A stretch of DNA of 51,476 nucleotides, taken from positions 1 through 51,476 of IMG/VR virus record IMGVR_UViG_3300001199_000009; one strand, 5' to 3'. Positions 12,724 to 35,944 of the stretch are shown in pieces. The position numbers and the translations under genes are program-made. The notes below the pieces were generated by a model, which was not told the origin of the DNA, made no database searches, and worked only from the letters and a program-made list of their open reading frames with translations. Each line of letters starts with the position of its first letter. Position 1 is the first letter of the stretch. The stretch comes from a virus.

Positions 12724-13236
12724 CTAATCATATGTAATGTCACTGCCAGCTAATCTGCGACGCTCTGCACGTGACGAATGAAGCCATGAAGAAGCATGTT
12801 CTCTAATTCTTTTGAGCTTGTCTTCAAACAACAAATAACAGTCCCACGTATCAAGCTCATCGTGCCGACCCATAATACGAGAATCGGCAATATAATAAAC
12901 CATCACACCATTTACCTTGCGTGACTGTGGGTGGAACTCCTCAAATGATATCCACTCGCCAGTTTTATACGGACATTCAGCGCGCGAACCGTCTTGGTTC
13001 TTTACTTCCTCAAAACAATGATCGCCAATCTTAAGAATCATGCCGTAGTTAGCTGATTGCTTCATTGAATCTGTTGAAAAAGAGGTTTGCACTAACCCCT
13101 GCATCATACTTATGCCAGGTGGGGCTAAAATAAGAAGCTCCCACAATGGAACACTTATTTTGGTTCCTAAATATATCTGGTCTAAATCGTCCCGACCAAG
13201 CGGGTTAAAAGTATCAAAATCGAGTAAATCATTCAT
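12724..13236 (-). CDS. Hypothetical head-module protein with a Cpn10/GroES-like sequence pattern
   Basis: PLWELLILAPPGISMMQGLVQTS...YGMILKIGDHCF...CPYKTGEWISFEEF...VMVYYIADSRIMG follows the GroES pattern P-L-x-D-R-V-hhh...GGI-hh...G-x-V-h-A-V-G...hhxGDxVhF...hhhhxxxDIhA. ATG 13236 has the SD GAGGGG. Confidence 0.3.
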   Translation of the reverse strand: MNDLLDFDTFNPLGRDDLDQIYLGTKISVPLWELLILAPPGISMMQGLVQTSFSTDSMKQSANYGMILKIGDHCFEEVKNQDGSRAECPYKTGEWISFEEFHPQSRKVNGVMVYYIADSRIMGRHDELDTWDCYLLFEDKLKRIREHASSWLHSSRAERRRLAGSDITYD

Positions 13237-13351
13237 TATCACCCCTCTAGATAACTTAACATATCAAAGTTTTGAAAAAATGTTTAGCTCTTTTGGAATA
13301 AAAGAAGCCAACCACCTTATTATCGGTCGTTGGCTGTTAGGTATGAATTTA

Positions 13352-18364: not shown

Positions 18365-18883
18365 TTAAATGATCGAAACTAAGGCAAGAAATACAATCCA
18401 CTGAAATGTTTGTGGACAACAAACATAATCCCACCAACTGCTTGATTCCTGTGACCGTTTAACCAAGAACTTGTAGATAATGGGATATCGTAAACGGGTT
18501 ACTTGGTTATCGTCATAACTTCGCCAAATTTCCCAGTCTTGCCAGGTGGAAGAAATGAAGGCAAGTTGTTTGTCTAATATCTGGGTTTTAGATGTTCCAG
18601 CACCTTCAATAGTCTCTAAGCGATCAACAAAAAAAGGAATGCTTTCGTTTCCCATACAATTACTGTAGTGAGACGCCACTAAAGTAGTCTTCAAATCACT
18701 CCAATAGGCGGGTGTTACTGGAGAGGGTGTCGGTGAGGGTGTGGAGTGGAGCGAGTCACAATTCTTGTAAGGAACCATCTTGCCACTAAACACCTCTATC
18801 AATTCTTTTTCTTCTACATCTTGCATAGAAAGCACAGGTGCTGCACTCATCAGAGCCAATGCCATTAACGTAATTTTCTTCAT
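18365..18883 (-). CDS. Secreted or membrane-anchored hypothetical protein (172 aa)
   Basis: Sec-type signal MKKITLMALALMSAAPVLSM. C-terminal hydrophobic WIVFLALVSII. AGGAG SD. Confidence 0.6.
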   Translation of the reverse strand: MKKITLMALALMSAAPVLSMQDVEEKELIEVFSGKMVPYKNCDSLHSTPSPTPSPVTPAYWSDLKTTLVASHYSNCMGNESIPFFVDRLETIEGAGTSKTQILDKQLAFISSTWQDWEIWRSYDDNQVTRLRYPIIYKFLVKRSQESSSWWDYVCCPQTFQWIVFLALVSII

Positions 18884-20418: not shown

Positions 20419-20700
20419 ATGCCATGCAAAAAACCATCAGATATTAAAGAGGTGGCGCAATACCGATCAGCCGTAGGTTTAGCCATTCAAGAGTTTAGAT
20501 CACTTAAAAACGTGCCAGTTACCATCTTTGCGCGCTCCATTGGCATGAAATATTGCCGCGTGTGGCAATACGAGAAAGGCCAATCATTACCGTCGTTGCA
20601 TGTTCTTTTAAACATCATCCAGAAATTAGGGTGTGATGAGACTACATTTTTTGCACGGGTACGGCATTACATTGAGATAGAAAGGAACACCGAGAAATGA
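20419..20700 (+). CDS. XRE/Cro-CI family helix-turn-helix regulator
   Basis: VTIFARSIGMKYCRVWQYEKGQSLPSLHVLLNIIQKLG matches the HTH_3 pattern (...S.s.is.~E.G...Ps...l..ia..L). AGGAGA SD. Confidence 0.7.
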   Translation: MPCKKPSDIKEVAQYRSAVGLAIQEFRSLKNVPVTIFARSIGMKYCRVWQYEKGQSLPSLHVLLNIIQKLGCDETTFFARVRHYIEIERNTEK

Positions 20701-21375: not shown

Positions 21376-22671
21376 TCACCGATATAACTGTAGAGTTTGC
21401 CGCGGTATATCGTACTGGAATTGATCGTAAGAATATTTGTTGTTCAAGTAGTCCTTGTGGAACTGCGAGTTTACATGAAAGCAATAATCTGATTCACCCT
21501 CAAATGGCAAATCCTTAATCCAGGTTGCGTAATGATCGGGCCCCATTTTTGCAAGTAGAGCGAGGCGGGCTTCTTTTTGGGGTAGCGATTCGGTGCTTTC
21601 AAATCCAATTGCGCGCTGCAGTTCTTCCATTTTTTCAGACATGCTTTTAACTGGTTGGGATATATTCATCATCTTTCTCGCCTCTTTCTTAGGTTTTATT
21701 AACGTTCTAGCAAACATGTATAGATTCTTAAATCTCAGGGCCTCTGTCAAGTTTCCAGCGAGGTTTTCTTTCGCCCACGCGGCAAGTTTTCTAAAGTTCT
21801 CCCGTGTCGGCCGGAATATTTCCCGTTCGAAGATAGCCCCAACAAACGTAAAATACTTCTTGTGTCGCTCAATATCGACCCATCGTTTAGATCGGCCCAC
21901 ATTGCCCCGAAACACGGGGGCGTAGCCCTTAGTTGTCCCTTTGTGTACTTCCTCCTCAAGAACGACTCCCATGGCGTAGATGAGCTCTCCAAGGCTGCTA
22001 ACTGCTTCTTGCTGACAAAGCGCAGCATAGCGGGCGCCTCCATAGCGCTGCCGCGCATGCAAGCGTGAGTTATCCACACCCTTATCATCACGTATATGAT
22101 ATAAATAACCCCGTAGGGGATTGGATACCGTTTGAAGATGGCGGATTTGTTCGGGTTCAGCCTTCAACAAGATAGATTGTGTGTTGCAATTTCCCTTAGG
22201 ATTCGTGACGCATTTACGGCCTTTGTACCTACCAACCTTTTGTTTAAAGCCTGGGACCTTACGGATAATATGCATGGGGTCGAACTGGCATATATCCGTG
22301 AGCGTCATTTTTTCGCTATGAGGTCTAATACCGCAGGGGACATAATTTTGTCCCTTAAGGAACGTTTCGAGCACTTTATAGTTAATAGCGTAGCAGTTAG
22401 TAGTTTTGCGTTTAACAAAATCGGGCTTTCTAACCACGATGATGCCGTTTTCCACCAAGAACTTAAGCGCTGTAAAAAAAGAATTTCTTTGATAGGTAAC
22501 TGCGCTAATTAATTCTTCCGCCGTGGCCCAAACAAAGGGCATAACCCCCCCACCCACATCACGAACGAACACGCGTTCTGGGTATTGTGCATAAAAATCG
22601 TGCAAAACAATGAGTAGCTCTTCACATTTCTTGGTGAAAGTATTATACTTAAAAGTACGAAGAAAGGTCAT
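21376..22671 (-). CDS. Putative replication initiator (N-terminal winged-helix-like region, C-terminal DnaA-N-terminal-domain-like segment)
   Basis: ELISAVTYQRNSFFTALKFLVENGIIVV resembles a wHTH. GPDHYATWIKDLPFEG...FHVNSQFHKDYL resembles the DnaA N-terminal pattern (f..Wi.pL......l.vpn.f..dwi). Iterons abut its start codon. No catalytic motif recognised. Confidence 0.4.
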   Translation of the reverse strand: MTFLRTFKYNTFTKKCEELLIVLHDFYAQYPERVFVRDVGGGVMPFVWATAEELISAVTYQRNSFFTALKFLVENGIIVVRKPDFVKRKTTNCYAINYKVLETFLKGQNYVPCGIRPHSEKMTLTDICQFDPMHIIRKVPGFKQKVGRYKGRKCVTNPKGNCNTQSILLKAEPEQIRHLQTVSNPLRGYLYHIRDDKGVDNSRLHARQRYGGARYAALCQQEAVSSLGELIYAMGVVLEEEVHKGTTKGYAPVFRGNVGRSKRWVDIERHKKYFTFVGAIFEREIFRPTRENFRKLAAWAKENLAGNLTEALRFKNLYMFARTLIKPKKEARKMMNISQPVKSMSEKMEELQRAIGFESTESLPQKEARLALLAKMGPDHYATWIKDLPFEGESDYCFHVNSQFHKDYLNNKYSYDQFQYDIPRQTLQLYR

Positions 22672-22780
22672 AAGATAGGTCCTTTTTAGTTAAGTGCGAA
22701 GAAGGGTCATGTGATGTGTCCTTTTTAGTTAAGTACGAAGAAGGGTTCATAAGATGGGTCCTTTTTAGTTAAGTGCGAAG
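22649..22780. repeat. Iteron-like array of about 3.5 direct repeats, 39-40 bp each (TTAGTTAAGTRCGAAGAAGGGTCATRWGATGKGTCCTTT). The first copy overlaps the rep start codon
   Basis: Copies at about 22649-22685, 22686-22724, 22725-22764 and partial 22765-22780. Each full copy carries a rep-start-like ATGACC/ATGAAC on the minus strand. Confidence 0.8.
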
Positions 22781-22939
22781 CTCGGTCGGGCAAAAATTGC
22801 CTTGTCCTTGTTAAAAAGAAAACTAACAAGTTTTTCGGCTTGTGGTTAAAGAAGAAGAAGAAGGGGCAGCTTGCTGCTTTTGAGAGATGGATGGCTTTTA
22901 CCTCGCTTTCTTTTCTTTCTTTCTTTTTTTTCTTGTTCA

Positions 22940-22990
22940 CGTTTGGGGCTTTTGTCGGTCTCGTACGTTTGGGGCTTTGGTCGGTCTCGA
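22940..22990. repeat. Two tandem 25-26 bp direct repeats CGTTTGGGGCTTT(T)GTCGGTCTCG next to long purine and pyrimidine tracts
   Basis: Copies at 22940-22965 and 22966-22990. The tracts aagaagaagaagaagg and ctttcttttctttctttctttttttt lie at about 22848-22932. Confidence 0.8.
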
Positions 22991-23400
22991 TTGTCTTTTT
23001 GTTTGTTTACTTACACAATAATGTGCATCTCATGTCTCCTTTTTCAAGGGCATGAGAGCCATTTTTGTATTTATATGACACACGATTGAATCGCAGTGAC
23101 AAACCGTTATTCTATAAAGAAACCAACCTTTAATAATCTATTAAAAGGCTGGACCAAACAATTACATGTAGAAAATATTTCTTCCCCCTTTCGAAGAAAG
23201 AACATCAATGGTAAGATTGTTATGATAAGACAGACAAAAAGATATTATTAGCTCGATCTATCCAAAGCAATAAAGAATCAGTAGATTAGAAATACGTGGG
23301 AGGGGGTTTAGGTGTTTAGGCATTCCTTACCTCACCTTTATGCCCAAGCATAGAACACCCAGATAGCCTCTTTCCCACGCTATTACAAGGAGACATTACT

Positions 23401-23733
23401 ATGCGCAATTTCATAGAGATGGACGTGGCGGGGCACACTCTTCGTTCACACCATAAGTATGATCGAAAAATCATGATTGGCCTGATTGAATCAGGCTTGC
23501 GCAAAGACTGGAATAGCGTGTTGAATAATTCATTATACGTTTGTATTGAGTTATTTATTATATATATTTCAATTAAATTGGACTTTCACCAAAATGAAAT
23601 ATTTTGCGCTGGCATTGGTACGAGTGCTTTGTATTTCCTCTACAAGGCTTGTCAAAGTCTAAGTAGCATATACTTTAAAAATAAATGCCTGCGCTCTATC
23701 CACAAAGATCAGAGTATCTTTGATTCGATGTAA
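23401..23733 (+). CDS. Hypothetical protein (110 aa) with a hydrophobic central segment
   Basis: AGGAGA SD 7 nt upstream. YVCIELFIIYISIKL and FCAGIGTSALYFLY segments. Confidence 0.45.
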   Translation: MRNFIEMDVAGHTLRSHHKYDRKIMIGLIESGLRKDWNSVLNNSLYVCIELFIIYISIKLDFHQNEIFCAGIGTSALYFLYKACQSLSSIYFKNKCLRSIHKDQSIFDSM

Positions 23734-23748
23734 GCGCAGACACCCGAT

Positions 23749-23841
23749 TTACCCGCCGTATTTAATATCGATTGATACAAGTAAAACACTTAATAAAAGG
23801 AAGAAAATGGCTTTAAACCATCTTTGTTCGCTGTATTTCAT
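23749..23841 (-). CDS. Candidate 30-aa membrane peptide (MKYSEQRWFKAIFFLLLSVLLVSIDIKYGG) at the distal end of the LRR operon, below the ORF-track cutoff
   Basis: GAGG SD 6 nt upstream of ATG 23841. TAA at 23749-23751. Single hydrophobic helix. Confidence 0.3.
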   Translation of the reverse strand: MKYSEQRWFKAIFFLLLSVLLVSIDIKYGG

Positions 23842-23920
23842 TTTAAACCTCGTTGTTATTAGTTAACAAAAAAATATCAAAACAGAATAATAAAAATATG
23901 TATCTCTTCGTTTCTATGGT

Positions 23921-24700
23921 TTATCTGTAGTCTCGTTTTCCCGCCATTATCAAGTTGTGACGACTAAGCGGGGTTAAATCTATCTGCTTCAATCCATCAC
24001 ACCTGAAAAGGAAATAATCACCAATTGTGGTGACATTGCAAAGTGGGCTCACATCCAACTGCTGCAAAGCTAGGCAATCGTAAAGAAAAGACTGCCCTAT
24101 CGTGGTGACATTGCTAAACGGGCTTAAATCTATCTGCTGCAATCCATTACACCAGGCAAGGAAATAATCACCAATGGTTGTTACGTTGCTAAGCGGGCTT
24201 AAATCCAACTGCTGCAAAGCTGTACAATAGGCAATGAAATAATCACCAATGGTTGTGACATTGCTAAACGGTGTTAAATCCAACTGCGTCAGTCCCTCAC
24301 AACAGTAAATAAAAAACTTCCCTATCGTTGTGACGTTGCAAAGTGGGCTTAAATCTATCTGCTTCAATTCGTCACATCCGTGAAGGAAATGACTACCAAT
24401 GGTTGTGACATTGCAAAGGGGGCTTAAATCTATCTGCGTCAATCTTCTACAACAGCCAAGAAACCAGTTTCCAATGGTTGTGACATTGCAAAGTGGGCTT
24501 AAATCTATCTCCTTCAATCCATAACAACAGGAAAGAAAATCATGCCCAATGGTTGTTACGTTCTCCGCATTGATGATCTCTATATTGATAATCTTTATTT
24601 CCTCAATTCTCTTGCGTGGGAAAGATATAGAGTCCATTTCCAGTACAGAATCACCCTCACAGTCAATTGTTAGCTTGCTGCCTTCAAAAGTAAATTTCAT
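23921..24700 (-). CDS. Leucine-rich-repeat protein, BspA/TpLRR type, 8 units of 25 aa (LRR paralog 4 of 4)
   Basis: Repeating L.QIDLSPLCNVTTIGDYFL..C.. units. Conserved N-terminal block MKFTFEGSKLTIDCEGDS. Start overlaps the upstream stop (ATGA). Confidence 0.85.
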   Translation of the reverse strand: MKFTFEGSKLTIDCEGDSVLEMDSISFPRKRIEEIKIINIEIINAENVTTIGHDFLSCCYGLKEIDLSPLCNVTTIGNWFLGCCRRLTQIDLSPLCNVTTIGSHFLHGCDELKQIDLSPLCNVTTIGKFFIYCCEGLTQLDLTPFSNVTTIGDYFIAYCTALQQLDLSPLSNVTTIGDYFLAWCNGLQQIDLSPFSNVTTIGQSFLYDCLALQQLDVSPLCNVTTIGDYFLFRCDGLKQIDLTPLSRHNLIMAGKRDYR

Positions 24701-25224
24701 CTATTTTCTCCTTCTTTAAGAGCCGCCATTACCGGGCTTAAATCTAACTCCCTCAATCTTCTACAATAGCCAAGAAAATTACTACCTATCCTGGTGACAT
24801 TGCAAAGGGGGCTTAAATCTAACTCCCTCAATCTTCTACAACAGGAAAGAAAATCATGCCCAATGGTTGTTACGTTGCTAAGCGGTGTTAAATCTATCTG
24901 CTCCAGTCCTCCACAACAGTAAAGGAAACGATCACCAATTGTGGTGACATTGCTAAGTGAGGTTAAATCCAACTGCGTCAGTTCATTACAATCGTAAAGG
25001 AAATCATCACCAATTGTGGTGACATTGCAAAGTGGGCTTAAATCTATCTGCGTCAATCCCCAAGAATCGTAAAAACACCAGTTACCAATGGTTGTGACGT
25101 TCTCCGCATTGATAATCTCTATTTCCTCAATTCTCTGGCAGTGGAAAGAATCTGAGTCCATTTCCAGTAAAGACTCACCCTCACAGTCAATTGTTAGCTT
25201 GCTTCCTTTAAAAGTAAATTTCAT
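24697..25224 (-). CDS. Leucine-rich-repeat protein, BspA/TpLRR type, 5 units (paralog 3 of 4)
   Basis: Same 25-aa unit and N-terminal block. C-terminal DLSPVMAALKEGENR. ATGA overlaps at both ends. Confidence 0.85.
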   Translation of the reverse strand: MKFTFKGSKLTIDCEGESLLEMDSDSFHCQRIEEIEIINAENVTTIGNWCFYDSWGLTQIDLSPLCNVTTIGDDFLYDCNELTQLDLTSLSNVTTIGDRFLYCCGGLEQIDLTPLSNVTTIGHDFLSCCRRLRELDLSPLCNVTRIGSNFLGYCRRLRELDLSPVMAALKEGENR

Positions 25225-25898
25225 CTACTTTTCCCTTCTTTAAGAGCCGCCATTACCGGGCTTAAATCTATCTGCTTCAAATCTTCACACCTGAAAAGGA
25301 AACCATGCCCAACTGTGGTGACATTGCCAAGCGGGCTTAAATCTAACTGCTTCAGCCCACCACAATGGGCAAGGAAATCATCTCCAATCGTGGTGACATT
25401 GCTAAACGGGCTCACATCCAACTGTGTCAGTCCATCACAAGCGTAAAGGAAATAATCACCAATGGTTGTGACATTGCAAAGCGGGCTTAAATCTATCTGC
25501 GTCAATTCATCACAACCGCAAAGGAAAGAATTACCAATCGTGGTGACATTGTTAAACGGGCTTAAATCTATCTGCGTCAATTCATTACACCAGGCAAGAA
25601 AACAATCACCAATGGTTGTGACATTGCAAAGCGGGCTTAAATCCAACTGCGTCAGTCCCTCACAATCGTAAAGAAAAGAATCACCAATCGTGGTGACGTT
25701 GCCAAGCGGGCTCAAATCAAGATGCTGCAAAGCTGTACAATCGAAAAGGAAATCATCTCCAATCGTGGTGACGTTCTCTGCATTGATAATCTCTATTTCC
25801 TCAGCACGCCTGCATGGGAAAGAATCTGAGTCCAGATCCAGTAAAGAATCACCTTCGCAGTCAATCGTTAGCTTGCTGCCTTCAAAATTAAATTTCAT
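25221..25898 (-). CDS. Leucine-rich-repeat protein, BspA/TpLRR type, 7 units (paralog 2 of 4)
   Basis: Same unit and N-terminal block. C-terminal DLSPVMAALKEGKSR. ATGA overlaps. Confidence 0.85.
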   Translation of the reverse strand: MKFNFEGSKLTIDCEGDSLLDLDSDSFPCRRAEEIEIINAENVTTIGDDFLFDCTALQHLDLSPLGNVTTIGDSFLYDCEGLTQLDLSPLCNVTTIGDCFLAWCNELTQIDLSPFNNVTTIGNSFLCGCDELTQIDLSPLCNVTTIGDYFLYACDGLTQLDVSPFSNVTTIGDDFLAHCGGLKQLDLSPLGNVTTVGHGFLFRCEDLKQIDLSPVMAALKEGKSR

Positions 25899-26497
25899 CT
25901 ACTTTTCCCTTCTTTAAGAGCCGCCATTACCGGGCTTAAATCTATCTTCTGCAAAGATGTACATCTGGAAAGGAAACGATCACCAATTGTGGTGACATTG
26001 CAAAGCGGGCTTAAATCTATCTGCTGCAAAGCTTCACATAAGGCAAGGAAACAATCCCCAATGGTTGTTACGTTGCTAAGTGGGCTTAAATCCAACTGCT
26101 TCAATCCATCACAACAGAAAAGGAAACGATCCCCAATTGTGGTGACATTGCAAAGTGGGCTTAAATCTATCTGCTGCAATCTTCTACAACCGTAAAGAAA
26201 ATCATTCCCAACTGTGGTGACGTTGCAAAGCGGTGTTAAATCTATCTGCCACAAAGCTCTACAATTGAAAAGGAAACAATCCCCAATGGTTGTGACGTTG
26301 CTCAGCGGTGTTATATCCAACTGCTGCAAAGCTGTACAACAGAAAAGGAAACGATCCCCAATTGTGGTGACGTTCTCTGCATTGATAATCTCTATTTCCT
26401 CAACGAGCCTGCGTGGGAAAGAATCTGAGCCCATTTCCAGTAAAGACTCACCCTCACAGTCAATCGTTAGCTTGCTGCCTTCAAAATTAAATTTCAT
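25895..26497 (-). CDS. Leucine-rich-repeat protein, BspA/TpLRR type, 6 units (paralog 1 of 4)
   Basis: Same unit and N-terminal block. C-terminal DLSPVMAALKEGKSR. Start abuts the stop of 26498..26992. Confidence 0.85.
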   Translation of the reverse strand: MKFNFEGSKLTIDCEGESLLEMGSDSFPRRLVEEIEIINAENVTTIGDRFLFCCTALQQLDITPLSNVTTIGDCFLFNCRALWQIDLTPLCNVTTVGNDFLYGCRRLQQIDLSPLCNVTTIGDRFLFCCDGLKQLDLSPLSNVTTIGDCFLALCEALQQIDLSPLCNVTTIGDRFLSRCTSLQKIDLSPVMAALKEGKSR

Positions 26498-26992
26498 CTA
26501 CTTTTCCTCGTCGTAGGGGGCCTTAAAAACAATAGAAATCAAGCTCTTTGGCACATTAAACTTACGTGCTAGCTCATGAATGGATTCTGTGTGGTTCTCG
26601 CTATTTAGAATGCGCCGTATCTCACCAGTCGGCATGATAAGATCAACCGCACACTTAAACGCCACATCATCCTTAGCCTTCCCAAGGTTTGTACTAAACA
26701 ATTCACTGACCGTAACCTTGTCCGCAATGGCGCCCTTGTGAATCATGTAGTGCGACAATAGAAAGCTCTTGATGAATCGAACTATAGGACTCTGTGGTGA
26801 AAACTCATCAGAAATTTTAATAAGCACCCCAATATCAGATACCAACATTTCGGCAATACAAGGCAAAGGCACGTCATACGAAACATTTATACCAACCTTT
26901 AGTAGCATCCCATCTATATTGATCGGTAAATCTTTTATAAAAGGCGACAACTTGTTGTAGAAATGACTTGGATATGGATAAATTTTATTCAT
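26498..26992 (-). CDS. ImmA/IrrE (DUF955)-like protein with a degenerate active site (HEXXH replaced by FLLSH)
   Basis: Aligns with 33152..33637: RFIKSFLLSHYMIH versus RFTIAHEIAHFVLH; AVDLIMP versus ATDILMP; ELARKFNVPKSLISIVF versus TLAEVFNVSNSAMSIRL. Confidence 0.55.
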   Translation of the reverse strand: MNKIYPYPSHFYNKLSPFIKDLPINIDGMLLKVGINVSYDVPLPCIAEMLVSDIGVLIKISDEFSPQSPIVRFIKSFLLSHYMIHKGAIADKVTVSELFSTNLGKAKDDVAFKCAVDLIMPTGEIRRILNSENHTESIHELARKFNVPKSLISIVFKAPYDEEK

Positions 26993-27019
26993 GATTTAAA
27001 ACCTTTCGTTTGGTTAATG

Positions 27020-27277
27020 CTATAACATCTCTTCTGCTTCTCCTGCTAGGACGTCGTTCAAAAAGGACTGCAACTCGTCCGCGTCTTCTTCTACACATAT
27101 AAAGGAGTATGTTTCATCATCTGAAAGAACAAAACTGTGCTCACGTTTATCATTCGTCTTACTCTCTTCTTTAATCACATACTGTGGATCAATATGCACC
27201 TTATCACTAGGGTGATACATTGCACCAACACCAATAATGGTGATGGCTATCGCTGATATTATCATAATTTTCTTCAT
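27020..27277 (-). CDS. Small signal-anchored or secreted acidic protein (85 aa)
   Basis: MKKIMIISAIAITIIGVGAM hydrophobic N-terminus and an acidic C-terminal half. Confidence 0.5.
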   Translation of the reverse strand: MKKIMIISAIAITIIGVGAMYHPSDKVHIDPQYVIKEESKTNDKREHSFVLSDDETYSFICVEEDADELQSFLNDVLAGEAEEML

Positions 27278-27293
27278 GGCTAGGTATCTTTCT

Positions 27294-27308
27294 ATGTCTT
27301 ATAGACAT
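27294..27308. promoter_or_regulatory. Perfect palindrome ATGTCT-TAT-AGACAT 17 nt upstream of the 85-aa gene (candidate operator)
   Basis: Read at 27294-27299 and 27303-27308. Confidence 0.25.
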
Positions 27309-27431
27309 TTTGCATAACATTCTTTATATACCTACACTAGAACTCTCCACATTAAATAACAACAACCTAGCCAGTTGAAATAATAAAAAATTTTCTAACA
27401 AAAGAAAGTCATGTACACAGAAATAGAAAAG

Positions 27432-27461
27432 TAGCTATCTAGAATTCTGTCCAGATAGCTA
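27432..27461 (-). terminator. Rho-independent-like terminator after the chaperonin gene (TAGCTATCT-N12-AGATAGCTA, then CTTTTCTATTT on the minus strand)
   Basis: 9-bp perfect stem read directly. A T-rich tract follows on the coding strand, 12 nt after the stop. Confidence 0.5.
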
Positions 27462-27472
27462 TCTATACGGGC

Positions 27473-29152
27473 CTACATGCCCATGCCAGGAAGGCCATTC
27501 ATTAAAGAAGAACGATCAGGCATTTTGCCCGTTCCTACAATCGCCTCTGTTGTCATAATCATGGATGAAACAGAAATAGCGTCTTTAAGAGCCGTTGTGA
27601 TCACAAAAGTAGGATCAATAATTCCCTCCAGCAAAAGGTTGACCTCATTGCCCGTTGAGCTATCAAAACCAAACGAAGAATAATTTACCTCTGCTTCACA
27701 CATGTAATAAGAGAAAAGTTTTTCGCTTGGATCAAAACCCGCATTGATCAGTATCTGAAAACACGGCTGCTCAATACCCGCAAGCACTATGTCAAATCCT
27801 GCTATCCAACCTGCACGGGAATGATCAAGGGGTGCCTCTTGCTTGAAGATACTCTCCCTATTAGCTTCAAGGGTTTGAGCTGCCTTCAATAAAGCAAATC
27901 CACCACCTGGGCTAATACCCTCTTTAAAAGCCGCCTTAACCGCATTAATAGCATCCTCAACGCGATCATACAGTTCAAGCCTTTCTACCTCTGTGGGAGC
28001 CCCCACGCGCAAGCTAGCAATACCTGTATCCAAACTTCCTAAACGCTTATCCAAATATTCTCGTGTTGAAGCGTCCTGGCACTTTTCAATGCTGTCGCGT
28101 ACTTGCTGGGCCCTCACCTGGCATTCTTCAGGATTGCCCTGGCCATTCACAATAAGAGTGGATATTTCATCAATAACACAACGATCAGCTTGGCCTAACA
28201 TATCAAGCGTGATTTTCTCGGGCTTAATACCTGATGCCATACTTAAATAGCGTGCACCCGTAATGGCCGCAATGTCCTTCAATAATTCCGTTCTCTTCTC
28301 GCCAGAATAGGGGGCATTCACCGGACATGTTTTTACTGCATGGCGATTGGCAATAAGCATAGCTAAGCCCTCGCCATCTATTTCATCACAGATGATAAGT
28401 AATGAACGTCCAGTATCTTTTACCGCAGACACAAGGTTGGCAAACGGTTTGAAAACAGGAATCTTTTCATTCCATATAAGAATATAAGGATTTTCCAACA
28501 AACATGTCTCGTTTGGCTGGTTCATAAAATAAACGCTACTCCAACCTTTGCTTATCTGACAGCCGCGGATAATCTCTAAATGTGATTTTGGAAAGTCTGA
28601 ATGAGCCAGCGTGATCACACCATCTTGGCCAACGTTTTGAACAGCCTCAACTAAAAGGGCGCCAATGTGCTTGTCTCCATTACACGCAAGGGTGCCAACT
28701 GATAAAATTTGTTCGTCGTTCTCAATGCTTAAAGAGCGGCTGCGCAATAAATCAACAACTCGACCCTCCGCCGCTTTCATGCCGCGCCCCAGGTCAATTG
28801 GGCTATAACCCGCTGTTAAAAGCTTGTAGCCCTCTTGAATAAATTTTTGCGCTAGAACAGTGGCTGTTGTGGTGCCATCACCCGCTAATTTGGCTGTCTT
28901 GGCCGCCGCCTCACGCACAATTTGAATGCCAATATTGATATCACTATCGTCTGTATCTTCAATATGATTAGCTACCGTTACACCGTCCTTCGTCATACGA
29001 GGGGGGCCTCCCCACGGATTCTTAATGGCCACATTGCGACCCCGTGGCCCAAGAGTGGTTTTAACAGCGTTAGCTAATAAATTAACCCCTTCCATCATTT
29101 TTGAGCGCGCTTGAATCCCAAGTAATACAGAGGAATTTTTATGTGTTGTCAT
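27473..29152 (-). CDS. groEL: GroEL/Cpn60 family chaperonin (559 aa), divergent phage-borne copy
   Basis: [20 protein letters not shown] (nucleotide-binding loop), [20 protein letters not shown] (GroEL [20 protein letters not shown]), apical GWSSVYF (GroEL GYLSPYF), C-terminal GLPGMGM tail. Confidence 0.92.
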
Positions 29153-29184
29153 ACCTACCTACAATGTTTGTGTTGATGCCTCCT

Positions 29185-29212
29185 ATCATTCCACAGCTTG
29201 AATGTAAGTCAA
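29185..29212 (-). promoter_or_regulatory. Candidate sigma-70-type promoter for the chaperonin gene: TTGACT-16 nt-(TGg)AATGAT
   Basis: Minus-strand -35 at 29207-29212 and an extended -10 at 29185-29190, about 30 nt upstream of the ATG. Pattern match only. Confidence 0.3.
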
Positions 29213-29514
29213 AGTGCGAACCCTCGCACCACGTCATGTCTAGCATCTATCATCAAGATCAAGAAGTATGCTTTTTCTAGCAAGAGCACATCTTTTCTGA
29301 ATTCTACTCCCAAATGGCCTAACTAATTTGGAGGGACATAACCAAATTGCCTATGAAAATCATGTATTTACACCTACACACAAATGATCTATACTTGTTA
29401 TTAACGATGTGAGAGTAATATAGCCAACCTAAGAAGAGTACCTAATGAATGGACGATATGTAGTATACTTATATCTGATAGTGCAAACACTCATTTTAGT
29501 AAAGTTCGGAATGA

Positions 29515-30597
29515 ATGGCAGCTAATCCTTCGTTTGTTAAGCATGATAGCTCTGAGAGAAACACCGAATCTGTTCGTATTTTTCAAGAAATCTTAAAACT
29601 CAAAAAACAAATCCACTTTGATGTCATAAAAAACAAATTTAACGGAACCATAAGAAATTTGTTTTGTAATTGGACATATCAATTGGGAATGGGAATACGC
29701 CGTGAACGCGACTTACATGCTCACTCCATCGGCAAACAATTTAGATTAACTCAATGGCACGCTGAGCTCTACTGTCTTTCAAAGAACTACGACGAATGCG
29801 CCGTTCAACTACTCGATAATTTTCACTTTCAACACAAATCACTCTTCCAAGTCGTTCAAAACGTCCCTGTGGGGACCTCTGCACTTGTATGGAAAGAAAT
29901 AGAGAAACACATAGAAAATCTCGTCAATATCCACAGGCCCTCTGTCTTCTATTGTGTTAGCATTTACAAAAGATACTATCGAATCCCTCTAAACGACCTC
30001 ATTCAAGTGGCATGGATGGTTTTAGTTGAATCTATCCAACACTATGACGTTGAGATGGGTGTGCCTTTTATCACCTACTATATGATACGCATCAAAGTGT
30101 ATCTCAGGCGCGCCTATACCAACTCGTGTGATATTATCTTGCGTGATGATGAATTCCTGCAATTTGCCAAACTTCAATACCTGCTTGAGAAAAACAATGA
30201 GGACCCAACCAACCCATCGTTTATCAAACGATGTAAAGCTCTCTTTAACGTGGATGATGTGGGGGCCCTTGTCGAAGATCATTTGATGAAATACAGCGCA
30301 ATGAATATGGCGGACATATCCAAGTTGCCTAACATTTCAATTCAAGATGAATCCAGAAACGGAACGTTTGAAGAGAAAAACGAAATTAAAAGCCGTGATA
30401 AAGCACTTATGACAGCAATTAACCAACTAGATGAAACAACACGTGAGATTCTTTTGATGAACTTTGGGTTTAAAGATGAACGCCACTATAATCGAGAGGA
30501 AATTGCCCTCAAGCTTAAAATACCCGTGTGTCGGGTGAGGGCTTTGAAAAATGCAGCCCTAGAAAAACTCAAGGAGTTAATGGAAAACCCATGGTAG
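29515..30597 (+). CDS. Sigma-70 family RNA polymerase sigma factor (360 aa)
   Basis: Region 2: DLIQVAWMVLVESIQHYDVEMGVPFITYYMIRIKVYLRRAY (cf. DLIQEGNIGLMKAVDKFD...F.TYA.WWIRQAI.R). Region 4: REILLMNFGF...REEIALKLKIPVCRVRALKNAALEKLK. Confidence 0.85.
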   Translation: MAANPSFVKHDSSERNTESVRIFQEILKLKKQIHFDVIKNKFNGTIRNLFCNWTYQLGMGIRRERDLHAHSIGKQFRLTQWHAELYCLSKNYDECAVQLLDNFHFQHKSLFQVVQNVPVGTSALVWKEIEKHIENLVNIHRPSVFYCVSIYKRYYRIPLNDLIQVAWMVLVESIQHYDVEMGVPFITYYMIRIKVYLRRAYTNSCDIILRDDEFLQFAKLQYLLEKNNEDPTNPSFIKRCKALFNVDDVGALVEDHLMKYSAMNMADISKLPNISIQDESRNGTFEEKNEIKSRDKALMTAINQLDETTREILLMNFGFKDERHYNREEIALKLKIPVCRVRALKNAALEKLKELMENPW

Positions 30598-31106
30598 ATT
30601 ATCAAATCGATCACCAAATCGAATCAATCATTTTAACACTTCAAAAGTTCCCCCCTATTAATATTATTGAGGTAGCACGCCTCGTTGGAATCGGGGTACA
30701 AGAAGACCCTAACCCACCTGAAATGATTAAAAGAAGTAGGGGGAAATCTTGGGGACGTATCGTAATGTACCCCTTCCCCATCATTTACTACAATAAAGAA
30801 GTATTACCACCCAATAAAATAAAGTTTGTTGTTGCAACACTTCTTAGCTACTGGGTCATTTTTAATGACAGACTTAAAAAAACAAATGGTTGTGAGTTCT
30901 ATCGCCTGTTTTGGTCGGAGCATTTCAAGAATGAAAAAGAAAGAAAAAAGGCTCTTAGGTATGCGGCAGACCTTCTTGTGCCCAAGCAAGCATTGAAAGA
31001 AATACTCCGTGTTAACACATTTGACGGCGACATAAATACTATGGCAAAGTATTTTGGAGTCCAACCTTCTTTAATATCTATAGTCTTAGGAATACCATAT
31101 GAATGA
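30591..31106 (+). CDS. ImmA/IrrE (DUF955)-like protein with a fully degenerate active site (HEXXH replaced by TLLSY), translationally coupled to the sigma factor gene
   Basis: ATG 30591 overlaps the sigma stop (ATGGTAG). KFVVATLLSYWVIF versus RFTIAHEIAHFVLH; AADLLVP versus ATDILMP; MAKYFGVQPSLISIVLGIPYE versus LAEVFNVSNSAMSIRLGVPFE. Confidence 0.55.
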   Translation: MVDYQIDHQIESIILTLQKFPPINIIEVARLVGIGVQEDPNPPEMIKRSRGKSWGRIVMYPFPIIYYNKEVLPPNKIKFVVATLLSYWVIFNDRLKKTNGCEFYRLFWSEHFKNEKERKKALRYAADLLVPKQALKEILRVNTFDGDINTMAKYFGVQPSLISIVLGIPYE

Positions 31107-31602
31107 AAATATTTGTCCCACCCCTTCGCTTGTCCGTAAGTTGACGCAAGAAGATTGCGGATTTGCTAAAACTGTATTTAACTCTAACTTTAGACGCATC
31201 ATTGATACGTCGTCCTGTCTGATGGCCGATACTTACTTTAATGCCAAAAGAGAAAACAATGTAAGCAACCTCACTGATACCTTTTGGTTTGATGCTCATA
31301 ATACATGTCATAGCACCTACAATAGGCTGCCTATGGTGTATGGCTTCATCAACATGGTCAACAAACACATAAGCGATGGAACCGAAGGAATTAATTTGCT
31401 TGATCGAGATAATCCCTACTACCTCAAAGAGGCTACAACATCATCTAAAAAAACAATCTGTGAATCCTTCAACCAATTGATTGATTTTTTTGAAGAAGTT
31501 AACGTACTGACGAAAAATGCTGAAACAAATTCGTTTGGTACCAACAGGAATTACATATCCTATACAATGGAAGGCTATGTAAGATTTAAGATAATTAAAT
31601 AA
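31099..31602 (+). CDS. Hypothetical protein (167 aa)
   Basis: Start overlaps the upstream gene end by 8 nt. No motif recognised. Confidence 0.5.
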   Translation: MNENICPTPSLVRKLTQEDCGFAKTVFNSNFRRIIDTSSCLMADTYFNAKRENNVSNLTDTFWFDAHNTCHSTYNRLPMVYGFINMVNKHISDGTEGINLLDRDNPYYLKEATTSSKKTICESFNQLIDFFEEVNVLTKNAETNSFGTNRNYISYTMEGYVRFKIIK

Positions 31603-31628
31603 CATAAACATAACGAAAGGATAACGAA

Positions 31629-32057
31629 ATGATTTCACCCTCAATATCACCACTGGAGATGAAAAAACGTATTGATGCAGGTCAAGTATGGGTGCCTATT
31701 AGAAAAGCTGAAATGATAGATCCTGGGGCCATTACAGGATACGAGGACGTGCAAAAAGTTTCTTGGTATCAAGGTGAGGAACCTTCACCATTTGACCTTG
31801 GCCTAGATGTTGGCGTTGTAAAATTGACATGCACTGTTAGAACAACAGTGGAAGGCGAAAAGACCATGACACACTTTGATCCATGCACGCCTATTTCAAC
31901 ATTCTATGGACTCATCACAGAAGATTGTGAGCGTTACGTGGGAACATGTGAATCATGTGAATCAACTGCGAATGTAACTGAGGAGGCTACTACGCCTTGT
32001 GAAGAAGCAGCCGTAGAAGAAACAGAGGCAACGGAACAAGTACCAGCGTCTGTATAA
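31629..32057 (+). CDS. Hypothetical protein (142 aa), Cys-containing with an acidic tail
   Basis: AAAGGA SD 7 nt upstream. No motif recognised. Confidence 0.5.
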   Translation: MISPSISPLEMKKRIDAGQVWVPIRKAEMIDPGAITGYEDVQKVSWYQGEEPSPFDLGLDVGVVKLTCTVRTTVEGEKTMTHFDPCTPISTFYGLITEDCERYVGTCESCESTANVTEEATTPCEEAAVEETEATEQVPASV

Positions 32058-32115
32058 ACGGGGGGGACGATTTGTCCCCTACCCTTCAACTAAACTTTAA
32101 ATAGGAGTCTACCCA

Positions 32116-33120
32116 ATGAAAAAACTTTTACTACTAGGAACAGCCGTTCTTGTAACAAACCATGCTTTTGCTTCATCCGATGAAGGAAGCGAACAAAAAA
32201 AACCAATAGGTTCGATTTCTCGCGCCCAGTCTTTCTATTCCCCTGCTCCGGAAGGAGATAGCGGTCGTATGCTCCCTCGTGGCCAAAGAATAGCAAACCC
32301 AATAGAATCGGGCTTCATTGCCCCTTTTAATTCGCCTGCGCCTGCTCGCGCCCCTTCTGAAACCCCTGATCCCAGCCACTCAGATGATGAAAGAAGAATC
32401 ATAATAGAAGTCAGTCGTCTTACCACTACGTTTCAAAATTTGGTGAATCAAGCTATCAGCATTCGGAGCGTATCTTGTATTGAGGCACTCCAAGATTGGA
32501 GCAGGAAACTTGCTCGCTTTCATCCTGATAATACTTTAAATGCTCTAACAGATGGACGTTATGCTAACTGGGGTTCTGTTTACGATGAAGCGGAACTGCT
32601 CAAAACCTGCGACAAATTCGTAACCCAAAAATATAACGAGCAAACATCAACAATCTTTAAGTTTATATCTCTTCTAGAAAGAGCTATAGATATAAAGAAT
32701 TTCTATGTTATTAGCAATCTTCGTCATTGGTGCGAAGGCCAAGAAGTAAAGAACAACATTATACAATTCACAAGAAGACAGTTTAAATCTTGGAATGATG
32801 TGTTGCATGAAGCAGGTTTTAACGACCGTGCGCTCAATGATGCCACGTACCGAACTGAAATATACGCGGGCCAAAACATTAGCCATCTCGTTAATGAATT
32901 TATAGAAAAGCCGTTTGGAAATGAACCTGAAACAGTCAATCTATTTATATCTCTCGTTCAAAGAGCTGTGATCACACACAATAAAGACATTCTATTTAAG
33001 CTTCGTGATTGGCTGGAAGTGACAGACCCAGAAACAGGCGATTCCATTCAAACCTTTACAAAAGGACTTTATAGGCGATGGAGTGACTTGTTTGATATGT
33101 GCAAATCCTCACATGAGTAG
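32116..33120 (+). CDS. Secreted protein (334 aa) with three ~70-aa internal repeats
   Basis: Sec signal MKKLLLLGTAVLVTNHAFA-SS. Repeats around FQNLVNQAISIRS...LQDWSRKL...YANWGSVYDEA / FKFISLLERAIDIKN...LRHWCEG...FKSWNDVLHEA / VNLFISLVQRAVITHN...LRDWLEV...YRRWSDLFDMC. Confidence 0.65.
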   Translation: MKKLLLLGTAVLVTNHAFASSDEGSEQKKPIGSISRAQSFYSPAPEGDSGRMLPRGQRIANPIESGFIAPFNSPAPARAPSETPDPSHSDDERRIIIEVSRLTTTFQNLVNQAISIRSVSCIEALQDWSRKLARFHPDNTLNALTDGRYANWGSVYDEAELLKTCDKFVTQKYNEQTSTIFKFISLLERAIDIKNFYVISNLRHWCEGQEVKNNIIQFTRRQFKSWNDVLHEAGFNDRALNDATYRTEIYAGQNISHLVNEFIEKPFGNEPETVNLFISLVQRAVITHNKDILFKLRDWLEVTDPETGDSIQTFTKGLYRRWSDLFDMCKSSHE

Positions 33121-33151
33121 GTGAGTATATATACCCTTGAGTCTTACAAGC

Positions 33152-33637
33152 TCAAGGGTACACCACCTTTGACTCAAATGGCACACCAAGCCTGATTGAC
33201 ATGGCACTGTTAGAAACATTGAACACCTCAGCAAGTGTTTCTATTGTTTCAATGTTCTGCCTTATAGCCTCATTAACCAAATCCCAAGGCATTAAAATGT
33301 CCGTAGCATAAGAATTAGCCTGTGTTTCAACTAAATTAGTTAAACCACTCCTATAAAGTGCGTCATCAATTATTTCATCCTTAATCAAATTACTATGAAG
33401 TACAAAATGGGCAATCTCGTGAGCAATTGTAAATCTTTGCCTGACTTTTGAATGATCAGCATTGATATAAATCACAAAACCATTCTCTTCTTTGGTGAGT
33501 TTGCCAGAAAGTTCTTTAGGCCAATCCTTTACAGTAAAAACCACTAGCCCCATATCACGAGCAATTTTCACAACAGGAACAGGCCATTTACTCTGATGTT
33601 TTGCAATGATTTCTTGCGCTTTGTCTAGCCTAATCAT
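33152..33637 (-). CDS. ImmA/IrrE family (DUF955) zinc metallopeptidase with an intact HEXXH
   Basis: FTIAHEIAHFVLH motif, downstream E..AN.YA.DILMP block and typical size of about 160 aa. Confidence 0.75.
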   Translation of the reverse strand: MIRLDKAQEIIAKHQSKWPVPVVKIARDMGLVVFTVKDWPKELSGKLTKEENGFVIYINADHSKVRQRFTIAHEIAHFVLHSNLIKDEIIDDALYRSGLTNLVETQANSYATDILMPWDLVNEAIRQNIETIETLAEVFNVSNSAMSIRLGVPFESKVVYP

Positions 33638-33646
33638 TTACCTGTC

Positions 33647-34450
33647 TTATGATTTCTGCGACTGAACCGACAACAATTTTCCATCATCGTCATGCGCTCG
33701 TGTAAGCCACCCGTGAAGGTATTTTCGCATCTTGGGATTCTTCTTTGTCACTGATAGATAATGACTCATCATGGCTATTCTTAGCTCAATCATCATATGA
33801 AGGGGATCAGCTTTGTTAGTAAGCTCAATCAACTTTTCAATCGGGGCGTTGTTAAGATCGATATTTTTTCCGGTGTCCTCCAGCTCTTCCTCAAGTGCTT
33901 TCCTCCAAATGCGCAACCCACCTTCCACACCAAACTGAACAACCATATCAAGAAGCTTGTGTTGCAGCTCTTCTTTAGCCACATCTTCAAGAGATGCTTT
34001 GTGCCAAAAATCCCTGTAATAGATGGCTGAAATATCATTTAACGTGAGGTTCTTTATGTCTAAATTGGGATAAGAACGTTTAGAAACTCCAAACTTTGTC
34101 TCACCGCCAGGGTCGTCCGGATCATTCACATAACCACCCTCATGCTTAAGAACTCTAACCAATGACCTTTGAAAATCAACGGACTTCTTAAAATCTAAAT
34201 CAATCTTATCTCGTACTTTATTGGCGTCGGTCAACACATCACTTGGACGAAGAGCTTCGTGTTCACATCCCTGTCGGCATAACCCTTGGTGAGACTGCAC
34301 GGAAGGTGGAGTATTAACCTCCGATCTATTTTGTAAGATCATAAATAATATCACAAAAAATGCAGCAAATATAGCTGTTATAGCTGTTAGAACAATGAAA
34401 ATCCTATAGCGATTAAAGAATCTTTTTGTTTTTTTAGACCAATTAAACAT
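33647..34450 (-). CDS. Membrane-anchored glycoside hydrolase family 108 muramidase (putative endolysin)
   Basis: VLKHEGGYVNDPDDPGGETKFGV matches the GH108 signature (EGGY.ndp.D.GG.T..Gi). N-terminal TM IFIVLTAITAIFAAFFVILFMIL. AAGGAG SD lies 6 nt before ATG 34450 (track start 34468 is a TTG). Confidence 0.8.
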   Translation of the reverse strand: MFNWSKKTKRFFNRYRIFIVLTAITAIFAAFFVILFMILQNRSEVNTPPSVQSHQGLCRQGCEHEALRPSDVLTDANKVRDKIDLDFKKSVDFQRSLVRVLKHEGGYVNDPDDPGGETKFGVSKRSYPNLDIKNLTLNDISAIYYRDFWHKASLEDVAKEELQHKLLDMVVQFGVEGGLRIWRKALEEELEDTGKNIDLNNAPIEKLIELTNKADPLHMMIELRIAMMSHYLSVTKKNPKMRKYLHGWLTRAHDDDGKLLSVQSQKS

Positions 34451-34464
34451 GAGGCTCTCCTTAA

Positions 34465-34929
34465 TCAAAAGGGTATATCATCATCTTCAGCTGTTGGCTT
34501 GGACGGATCAAAAGTCTTTTGCTCCAACTTTACTTCTACTGGCTTGTCCTCTAAAGCATCTGTTGATTCCGCAACGTCAGGTCGACTGTCCAACAAAAGA
34601 ATATCACCTCTAAAACGACCAATAATAATTTCCGTGGAATAACGATCTACACCCGAATTGTCTGTCCATTTACGTGTTTGTAACTGGCCCTCAACATAAA
34701 TACGAGAACCACTACGCACAAAACGATCAATGACATCCACAATACGGTCGTTCATCACCACTATACGGTGCCATTCTGTCTTAGATTTGCGTTCACCTGT
34801 GACCTTGTCTTTCCATAATTCACTGGTAGCTAGGGAGAAATTGGCGATCTGTGAGCCATCCTTCGTAAAGCTAATCTTGGGTGACTGCCCAACATTCCCT
34901 ATTAATGTAACCTTATTTAAACTTGACAT
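34465..34929 (-). CDS. ssb: Single-stranded DNA-binding protein
   Basis: NKVTLIGNVGQSPK...TEWHRIVVMNDRIVDVIDRFVRSGSRIYVEGQLQTRKWTD OB-fold pattern and a canonical acidic tail ending DDDIPF. Confidence 0.92.
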   Translation of the reverse strand: MSSLNKVTLIGNVGQSPKISFTKDGSQIANFSLATSELWKDKVTGERKSKTEWHRIVVMNDRIVDVIDRFVRSGSRIYVEGQLQTRKWTDNSGVDRYSTEIIIGRFRGDILLLDSRPDVAESTDALEDKPVEVKLEQKTFDPSKPTAEDDDIPF

Positions 34930-35513: not shown

Positions 35514-35744
35514 ATGAAAACATTTTTGAGAGAACCAGACTGTGCAAGAATTACTGGACTGAGCAAATCGACGCGTCGGAATTTGGAAAAATTAGGTAAA
35601 TTCCCCCTACGCCGAAAGCTCAGTGCCAACACTATAGGCTGGCTGTCTGATGAAATTGAAGAATGGATGGAGGAACGGCTTAAAGATTGTGGAGTTCTCC
35701 CCTCACGTTTTTCTAAAAATAAAGCAAATGGAACTAAGGAATGA
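35514..35744 (+). CDS. AlpA/excisionase-family HTH regulator (copy 1 of a tandem duplication)
   Basis: FLREPDCARITGLSKSTRRNLEKLGKFPLRRKLSANTIGWLSDEIEEWMEER matches the AlpA pattern (...G.s.sT.yr....G.FP.p..l....v.W...ev..W). Confidence 0.75.
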   Translation: MKTFLREPDCARITGLSKSTRRNLEKLGKFPLRRKLSANTIGWLSDEIEEWMEERLKDCGVLPSRFSKNKANGTKE

Positions 35745-35944
35745 AAACATTTTTGAGAGAACCAGACTGTGCAAGAATTACTGGACTTAGCAGAACGACG
35801 CGTTGGCGTTTGGAAAAATTAGGTGAATTCCCTCTGCGCCGGAAGCTCAGTGCCAACATTATTGGCTGGCCGTCTGATGAAATTGAAGAATGGATGGAGG
35901 AACGAAATAAAGCAAATGGAGATCAAATAAACGAAACAGAATAA
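35741..35944 (+). CDS. AlpA/excisionase-family HTH regulator (copy 2 of a tandem duplication)
   Basis: Near-identical to copy 1 at the DNA level. Start overlaps the copy 1 stop. Confidence 0.75.
   Translation: MKTFLREPDCARITGLSRTTRWRLEKLGEFPLRRKLSANIIGWPSDEIEEWMEERNKANGDQINETE

Follow-up and report, generated by a model that had tools for sequence, protein, structure and literature searches.

Peptidases of the ImmA/IrrE/CapP type (family M78, DUF955) switch on prophages, conjugative elements, DNA-repair regulons and anti-phage immune operons, and their catalytically dead relatives have, to our knowledge, barely been studied, the DUF955 domain of PrpR being the one clear case. A literature search finds no work on pseudo-ImmA proteins or M78 pseudopeptidases and no link between dead M78 proteins and phage sigma factors, and M78 goes unmentioned in a review of pseudoenzymes among the metallopeptidases. 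The peptidase domain of active family members docks transcription-factor substrates through a hydrophobic surface (bioRxiv 10.64898/2026.05.16.725639), and in MtPrpR, where the HEXXH residues of DUF955 are not conserved, the domain works inside a transcription factor and provides a non-catalytic precedent (PMC6765138). Here we analyse a 51.5-kb stretch of viral DNA (positions 1 to 51,476 of IMG/VR record IMGVR_UViG_3300001199_000009; hereafter the window) that encodes three M78 homologs, one with an intact active site and two without, which we call dead1 and dead2. A novel group of tailed phages has, we find, retained dead1 and dead2 as ancient, lineage-specific pseudo-peptidases with the M78 fold.

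Two M78-fold proteins without an active site

The three open reading frames (ORFs) lie where an earlier note on this DNA, made from the sequence alone, had placed them: dead1 (164 amino acids) at 26498..26992 on the minus strand, dead2 (171 amino acids) at 30591..31106 on the plus strand, and the intact copy (161 amino acids) at 33152..33637 on the minus strand. That note read them as one intact and two catalytically dead M78 homologs, a reading now borne out by BLAST, profile-profile comparison and predicted fold. Pairwise BLASTP among the three copies gives E values of 7e-11, 2e-10 and 3e-9. Against a profile of the intact copy's short-M78 subfamily, hhalign matches the dead2 lineage at 99.1% (E 4.5e-19) and the dead1 lineage at 98.7% (E 4e-16), with dead1 and dead2 matching each other at 98.2%, and a three-sequence profile search of the PDB returns CapP (7t5t) and IrrE (3dte). 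The shared blocks pointed out in the earlier note are real, namely the A.DL(I/L)(M/V)P block and the F(N/G)V...SI tail; within the N-terminal block the intact copy has PVPV in place of PxNx. On the Pfam model PF06114 (Peptidase_M78, cut-off 22 bits) the intact copy scores 73.6 bits, dead1 19.4 bits (E 1e-3) and dead2 15.1 bits, the last two falling under the cut-off; dead2 also matches phrog_87, annotated as a metallo-protease (E 9e-7), and the intact copy scores 107 bits on the PADLOC capP model.

AlphaFold2 (AF2) models, whose input alignments combined the dead lineages with canonical M78 homologs, reach a pLDDT of 89.1 and a pTM of 0.87 for dead1, and 82.8 and 0.81 for dead2. High-probability Foldseek matches of these models in the PDB (probability of at least 0.94) have the M78 fold only, namely CapP 7t5t, IrrE 3dti/3dte, PprI 8sln and MtPrpR 6cz6/6d2s/6cyy, with query-based TM-scores of 0.51-0.61 that fall to 0.35-0.42 when normalised to the targets, which are longer. 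For dead1 the match to CapP has an E value of 9.9e-5 and a query TM-score (TMq) of 0.61, with IrrE, PprI and MtPrpR also found; the top PDB matches of dead2 are CapP, MtPrpR and IrrE, and its best matches in BFVD are viral IrrE-like proteins. The profile and structure comparisons against M78 that the earlier note had proposed therefore go its way for both degenerate proteins, with all top hits belonging to M78. As judged from sequence comparison, the homology of the dead copies to M78 is independent of the AF2 models. The dead copies keep a peptidase-like core and a C-terminal helix-turn-helix (HTH)-like subdomain; all three phage proteins end after this subdomain, their match covering positions 8-150 of the 242 in the capP model, and in architecture they are ImmA-like, not IrrE-like.

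Where the intact copy carries RFTIAHEIAHFVLH (HEIAH), dead1 aligns FIKSFLLSHYMIH (FLLSH) and dead2 FVVATLLSYWVIF (TLLSY), the HExxH positions being F77-L78-x-x-H81 in dead1 and T83-L84-x-x-Y87 in dead2. Having lost the zinc-binding and catalytic residues of HExxH, the dead copies cannot work as gluzincin proteases. Could one or both still be enzymes or metal binders through different residues? We consider this very unlikely: the general-base Glu is Leu in both, and every dead2 ortholog lacks all three HExxH residues, even if the third-ligand Glu of dead2 (E117) is kept in three of four lineages and replaced by Gln in the fourth (E/E/Q/E). dead1 retains H81, H85 and an acidic residue at the third-ligand position (D108), and H81 is invariant in the lineage as part of an invariant FLLSHY motif, but neither H85 (Asn in P0124) nor the acidic residue (D/D/H) is conserved among the dead1 orthologs. 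The dead2 lineage has its own invariant pattern, F..A..L.Y, on the former active-site helix. Among 272 aligned M78 relatives, 240 keep H-E-H and about 30 do not; many of the latter are stand-alone proteins with H[LIAMSQ]xxH, including forms in which the Glu alone is gone and the two His remain (HLxxH, HIxxH), which would favour some residual metal binding, and others are HTH-fused, such as P0126 (SLxxH). Catalytically dead M78 domains are thus a recurrent and almost unstudied theme.

Retention of the dead copies was followed in the contigs that carry their orthologs and in a 50-kb contig of a divergent relative, L016, which together represent about five lineages. Among 5.8 billion proteins each dead copy has only one near-identical cluster (97% and 95% identity), and an exhaustive profile search of 1.84 billion representatives adds distant orthologs, P0121 (51% identical) and P0123 (42%) for dead2, and P0122 and P0124 (39-40%) for dead1, for which P0002 is a further ortholog. 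All four of these distant orthologs lack HExxH, as does the dead2 ortholog at L016:6017-6541. Between L016 and the window, identity is 77% for GroEL, 47% for sigma, 42% for dead2 and 37% for dead1. Full-length orthologs of the dead copies, 37-51% identical and all without HExxH, are present in phages whose sigma factors are themselves only 37-47% identical, and we conclude that the dead copies are retained genes of old lineages and not products of decay.

The contrary view, that they are functionless remnants of decaying duplicates whose neighbourhoods reflect compact gene packing, we regard as extremely unlikely, and pseudogenes in decay were rejected on the ground that intact ORFs are conserved over deep divergence. 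Sub-threshold Pfam scores would fit such remnants, as would a ratio of non-synonymous to synonymous substitution rates (dN/dS) of about 1.2 for dead1, a value derived from close variants with too few substitutions for the purpose (2 synonymous versus 9 non-synonymous). Against this stand the full-length ORFs kept where core genes have diverged to 37-47% identity, the lineage-specific invariant motifs and the confident, compact models; phage genomes also purge useless DNA quickly. In a neighbour-joining tree, drawn to see whether both dead lineages go back to one loss event, each of them forms a clade, and the union of the two has a bootstrap of only 17-33%, with distances that are saturated.

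The sigma cassette, the dead1 neighbourhood and a proposed non-catalytic role

The gene directly upstream of dead2 encodes a phage sigma-70-family factor of 360 amino acids (29515..30597, plus strand), with regions 2-4 at about residues 140-355, matches to Pfam Sigma70_r4 and r2, a score of 49.6 bits on TIGR02937 (above its cut-off) and PDB matches to RpoS/SigA. Its stop overlaps the dead2 start in CCATGGTAG, the ATGGTAG junction that the earlier note had pointed out, and the linkage proves both tight and conserved. The sigma gene lies directly 5' of dead2 in all five lineages with a visible upstream gene (window/L004, L001-L003, L014/L015, L016 and L025-L027), through overlaps of 7, 4 or 11 nt or a gap of 5 nt (-11 to +5 nt). 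Downstream, the dead2 stop is overlapped by the gene of a conserved protein, p167 (31099..31602, plus strand), which is followed by that of p142 (31629..32057, plus strand), conserved and very acidic (pI 4.2). Both follow dead2 in each contig that extends far enough: p167 orthologs, 48-55% identical, overlap and directly follow dead2 in L014, L016 and L025, the same three contigs in which p142 has orthologs. With the sigma gene always before dead2 and p167 and p142 after it, the order sigma, dead2, p167, p142 defines a conserved cassette. p167 has no match in Pfam, PHROG, NCBIfam or the PDB.

Anti-sigma genes classically lie downstream of, and overlapping, their sigma gene. In addition, about 140 residues at the N-terminus of the phage sigma factor form a conserved, His-rich extension in which D66, H68, H70, H82, H104 and H107 are invariant, and residues 1-140 match no sigma structure or Pfam model; this extension may be a metal-binding regulatory domain and could be the regulated part of the protein.

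The surroundings of dead1 are conserved on one side only. Its stop codon, TAG, is immediately followed by the ATG of the first of four tandem BspA-type leucine-rich repeat (LRR) genes (Pfam LRR_5; 23921..26497, minus strand), just as the earlier note had described, but its further claim that dead1 is wired to the LRR array does not survive comparison with related phages. Only here and in L006, a relative with 95% identity, do the two genes abut; in the divergent L016 a gap of 324 bp, a gene of 161 amino acids and two ankyrin genes separate dead1 from any LRR gene, and in L028 the gene called next after dead1 runs in the opposite direction. We therefore reject abutment as functional coupling, the adjacency not being conserved, and the contact between dead1 and the LRR genes is probably mere compact gene packing. 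On the upstream side, GroEL and a small single-transmembrane (TM) acidic protein are conserved neighbours of dead1 in the window, L005 and L016. Phage GroEL (27473..29152, minus strand; full length, 511 bits on NCBIfam GroEL, phrog_5725) heads a leftward gene string that includes dead1, and is the most conserved gene between this phage and L016. Between GroEL and dead1 lies p85 (27020..27277, minus strand; 85 amino acids, pI 4.4), whose position is filled in L005 by a 94% identical protein and in L016 by a 75-residue analogue with a TM segment and an acidic tail and without detectable sequence similarity.

A strong terminator-like hairpin, with a 12-bp stem and a T-tract, lies directly 3' of GroEL (27461-27432, minus strand), so that p85, dead1 and the LRR genes need read-through or a promoter of their own; no match to a sigma-70-type promoter is listed on the minus strand in the gap after GroEL. 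Related phages carry ankyrin-repeat genes at variable positions beside LRR_5 arrays (L016 3644-4489, 11241-13533 and 17065-18340; L013 665-1471), and this combination of LRR_5 arrays and ankyrin genes suggests a host that lives with a eukaryote, e.g., a sponge or protist symbiont. The contigs themselves originate from sponge and aquatic samples.

We are highly confident of the descriptive parts of this account, that is, homology, loss of the active site, retention and linkage. What the dead copies do is a more tentative matter: we propose that they are non-catalytic binding modules and that dead2 is a sigma-associated regulator, and assign this reading a probability of about 0.45. Under this proposal dead2 would bind and modulate the phage sigma factor, either as an anti-sigma factor or as a co-factor that times middle or late transcription, and would do so by reusing the hydrophobic docking surface by which its active relatives hold transcription-factor substrates. 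p167 and the acidic p142 possibly act together with dead2, and dead1 probably works with the small membrane protein encoded upstream of it or with another partner. A bolder version, which we think rather unlikely in its full form, makes dead2 the founder of a new class of phage sigma regulators on a dead ImmA fold, in which a protease ancestor became a stoichiometric sigma binder that gates middle and late transcription with p167 and p142, dead1 being a second "substrate-trap" module with a different partner. Were this so, the co-inheritance of a phage sigma factor and a free-standing dead ImmA fold would exemplify a protease-substrate pair evolving into a non-destructive regulator-target pair, and phage transcription control would gain a novel type of sigma partner.

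Several points weigh against a sigma-directed binding role. Gene adjacency in a compact phage genome is weak evidence by itself, and the lineages number only about five, all of them in one phage group, with none in INPHARED or IMG/VR. The recognition site of active M78 enzymes is the C-terminal dimerisation region of an XRE repressor and not a region of sigma. A fusion of sigma and M78 domains would serve as a Rosetta stone, but the dead copies' 150 best relatives include none, and such fusions as they show are to XRE or other small HTH domains. The AF2 models lean towards the M78 fold, canonical sequences being present in their alignments, and the dead1 dN/dS given above does not help.

Alternatively, the dead copies might be decoys for counter-defence, binding XRE repressors of the host or of co-resident elements (CapH/ImmR/DdrO-like) without cleaving them, or competing with host CapP/ImmA-type peptidases, such that defence operons and competing prophages or integrative and conjugative elements stay repressed. 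A protease that binds without cleaving is a classical trap design, CapP-CapH controls immune operons, and both dead copies are weak but specific matches to the capP model; they also lie in the early or regulatory part of the genome, near the genes for the single-stranded DNA-binding protein (SSB), GroEL and sigma. This explanation names no host target, has no precedent in our literature searches and leaves the invariant translational coupling of dead2 to sigma and to p167/p142 unexplained, and we consider it unlikely, preferring the sigma-associated binding role for dead2.

The intact copy, its bacterial relatives and the rest of the phage

The intact copy, a short CapP/ImmA-like M78 peptidase, has the residues H73, E74, H77 and E104; in its subfamily E74, H77 and the third zinc ligand E104 are invariant, and H73 is nearly so. 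The earlier note had called the three proteins paralogs. The intact copy is instead a separately acquired homolog and not a recent duplicate, since hundreds of foreign stand-alone proteins, each about 160 residues long, match it at 50-74% identity and the dead copies at only about 25%. Its gene is missing from L001/L002, where dead2 is 97% identical, and from L016 and L025, three lineages that keep dead2 and one of which also shows dead1. In the alignment with L001 the intact gene is a clean gene-sized indel between the stop of a glycoside hydrolase family 108 (GH108) lysozyme gene and an inverted repeat, ACCCTTGAGTCTTACAAGCTCAAGGGT (33133..33159), which lies between the convergent operons, forms one border of the indel and includes the stop codon of the M78 gene; in L016 an LRR gene sits in the exact slot of the intact M78 gene. 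The lysozyme gene (33647..34468, minus strand; Pfam Glyco_hydro_108) is directly upstream and encodes an N-terminal TM segment at residues 20-49.

Since related lineages keep dead2 without the intact gene, the dead copies are independent of it. The suggestion that the active copy acts in trans is accordingly one we reject: the intact gene is an accessory indel relative to the 97%-identical phage L001/L002, and the divergent L016 and L025 do without it. The arrangement of the dead copies has nothing to do with the intact copy, which is dispensable for this phage group and is a recently gained, solo member of a widespread bacterial subfamily of short CapP-like peptidases. Its closest outside homolog, P0004 (L013 2667-3137; 74% identical), reads YEIAH and has lost the first zinc-binding His; P0004 is encoded on an ankyrin-carrying, phage-like contig, where its gene adjoins what is, by eye, a homolog of window 18365-18883. 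Active-site erosion seems to recur in the M78 family.

A scan of GTDB genomes with the intact copy gives 560 loci, many of them in Alphaproteobacteria, Acidobacteriota and apparent sponge-symbiont metagenome-assembled genomes, of which we kept 80 (L029-L108) that are 36-66% identical to the intact copy over the best segment. An upstream ORF on the same strand is present at 63 of these; 56 of the 63 ORFs form one family, and 57 have predicted TM segments. The partner is about 120-220 residues long, typically with two TM helices and a charged tail, and usually overlaps the start of the peptidase gene, while a match to an XRE HTH is found for the upstream ORF at only 2 of the 63 loci. That ImmA/IrrE proteases normally act on an adjacent XRE repressor, as the earlier note assumed, is thus not the rule in this subfamily, where the usual upstream partner is a two-TM protein (56-58 of 63), and a missing XRE neighbour is for this reason normal for the intact copy. 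What is unusual about the phage copy is that it is solo: neither the window nor the related phage contigs have a match to a hidden Markov model of the 56 two-TM partners, and the upstream gene here is the GH108 lysozyme. The pair of a two-TM protein and a short CapP-like M78 protein is not in PADLOC as a system and is apparently an undescribed two-gene module; found in many bacteria, it represents a widespread module that is as yet uncharacterised.

As the earlier note had observed, no XRE gene adjoins any of the three M78 copies. The only one nearby, encoding an XRE-type HTH protein of 93 amino acids, is at 20419..20700 on the plus strand, and its product is a candidate substrate. The dead copies might then be anti-repressors that sequester this protein in a lysis/lysogeny or early/late switch, with the intact copy, where present, acting on it by cleavage. 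In favour of this, in families of HTH+M78 fusions (phrog_2439 and NF052239) one half is matched by the XRE protein and the other by the intact M78 protein, at positions 9-73 and 151-277 of phrog_2439, respectively, and the XRE ortholog is conserved along with both dead copies in L016, which has no intact M78 gene. Against it, 6-10 kb separate the XRE gene from each of the M78 genes, and what usually accompanies peptidases of the intact copy's subfamily is a two-TM protein, not an XRE repressor; lysogeny is also unproven, as the ORFs scanned in the window yield no integrase. We find this explanation quite unlikely, and continue to favour non-catalytic binding modules, with dead2 directed at sigma.

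The window itself comes from a tailed phage without a close relative in phage collections. It encodes a large terminase (16356-17978), a capsid protein (5526-6455) and an SU10-type adaptor (49998-50666), in addition to the GH108 lysozyme, SSB, a full GroEL, a GroES-like protein, the sigma-70-family factor and the four tandem LRR genes. The GroES-like match is weak (12724-13242, minus strand; phrog_3188, E 2e-4) and lies 14 kb from GroEL. In INPHARED the terminase finds nothing closer than proteins of Roseobacter and Pelagibacter podophages, at about 31% identity. No relatives of the phage group are found in IMG/VR with the large terminase, alignments of dead1 and dead2 or an alignment of sigma as queries, in INPHARED with dead2 or sigma, or in GTDB genomes with an alignment of the phage GroEL; the same GroEL alignment, searched against JGI metagenome contigs, returns only distant GroELs (27-59% identity) from outside the group.

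The window also carries HsdM and HsdS of a Type I restriction-modification system (7366-9998, plus strand; HsdM with 373 bits on N6_Mtase), and no HsdR is recognised among the ORFs scanned. Two tandem, overlapping paralogs at 35514-35744 and 35741-35944 (plus strand) encode small HTH proteins with nearly identical N-termini (MKTFLREPDCARITGLS...), which look AlpA-like by eye, no family search having been made. Between a replication-initiator-like gene (21376-22671; weak DnaA_N match) and the LRR array, about 1.2 kb (22700-23900) have no convincing ORF, and this stretch may be an origin or a regulatory region.

Comparison with known systems

ImmA of ICEBs1 and of phage ImmA/ImmR pairs is close to the phage proteins in size (about 160-170 amino acids), in its peptidase core with a C-terminal HTH-like subdomain and no GAF domain, and in its residence on a mobile element or phage, and the intact phage copy has the full H-E-H-E site. 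In contrast to ImmA, no phage copy adjoins a gene for an XRE/ImmR-type substrate, two of the three lack HExxH, and the subfamily of the intact copy pairs with a two-TM protein. The CBASS-associated CapP (7t5t) and IrrE/PprI (3dti, 8sln) are the best profile and structural matches of all three phage proteins and share the same peptidase and HTH domains; unlike them, the phage proteins have no C-terminal GAF domain, which in CapP and IrrE forms a groove for sensing single-stranded DNA together with the peptidase domain, so that DNA sensing in the manner of CapP/IrrE is not possible, and partners of the CapH/DdrO type are absent from the phage.

The position of the dead2 gene and its translational coupling to the sigma gene are those of anti-sigma factors such as RseA, RsiW and ChrR. 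There is no sequence or fold similarity between dead2 and anti-sigma families, with no Pfam, NCBIfam or PHROG match besides M78, and the phage sigma factor, composed of regions 2-4 and a unique N-terminal domain, is not an extracytoplasmic function sigma. MtPrpR/RamB (XRE-HTH, DUF955 and GAF-like domains; 6cz6, 6d2s, 6cyy) has likewise lost HEXXH and is a structural match of both dead copies. MtPrpR is a single large polypeptide whose GAF-like domain binds CoA and a 4Fe4S cluster, whereas the dead copies are stand-alone proteins without an N-terminal HTH or a GAF domain, such that only the DUF955-like part aligns (TMq 0.51-0.59), and where PrpR has a fused XRE HTH, dead2 has its coupling to a sigma factor.

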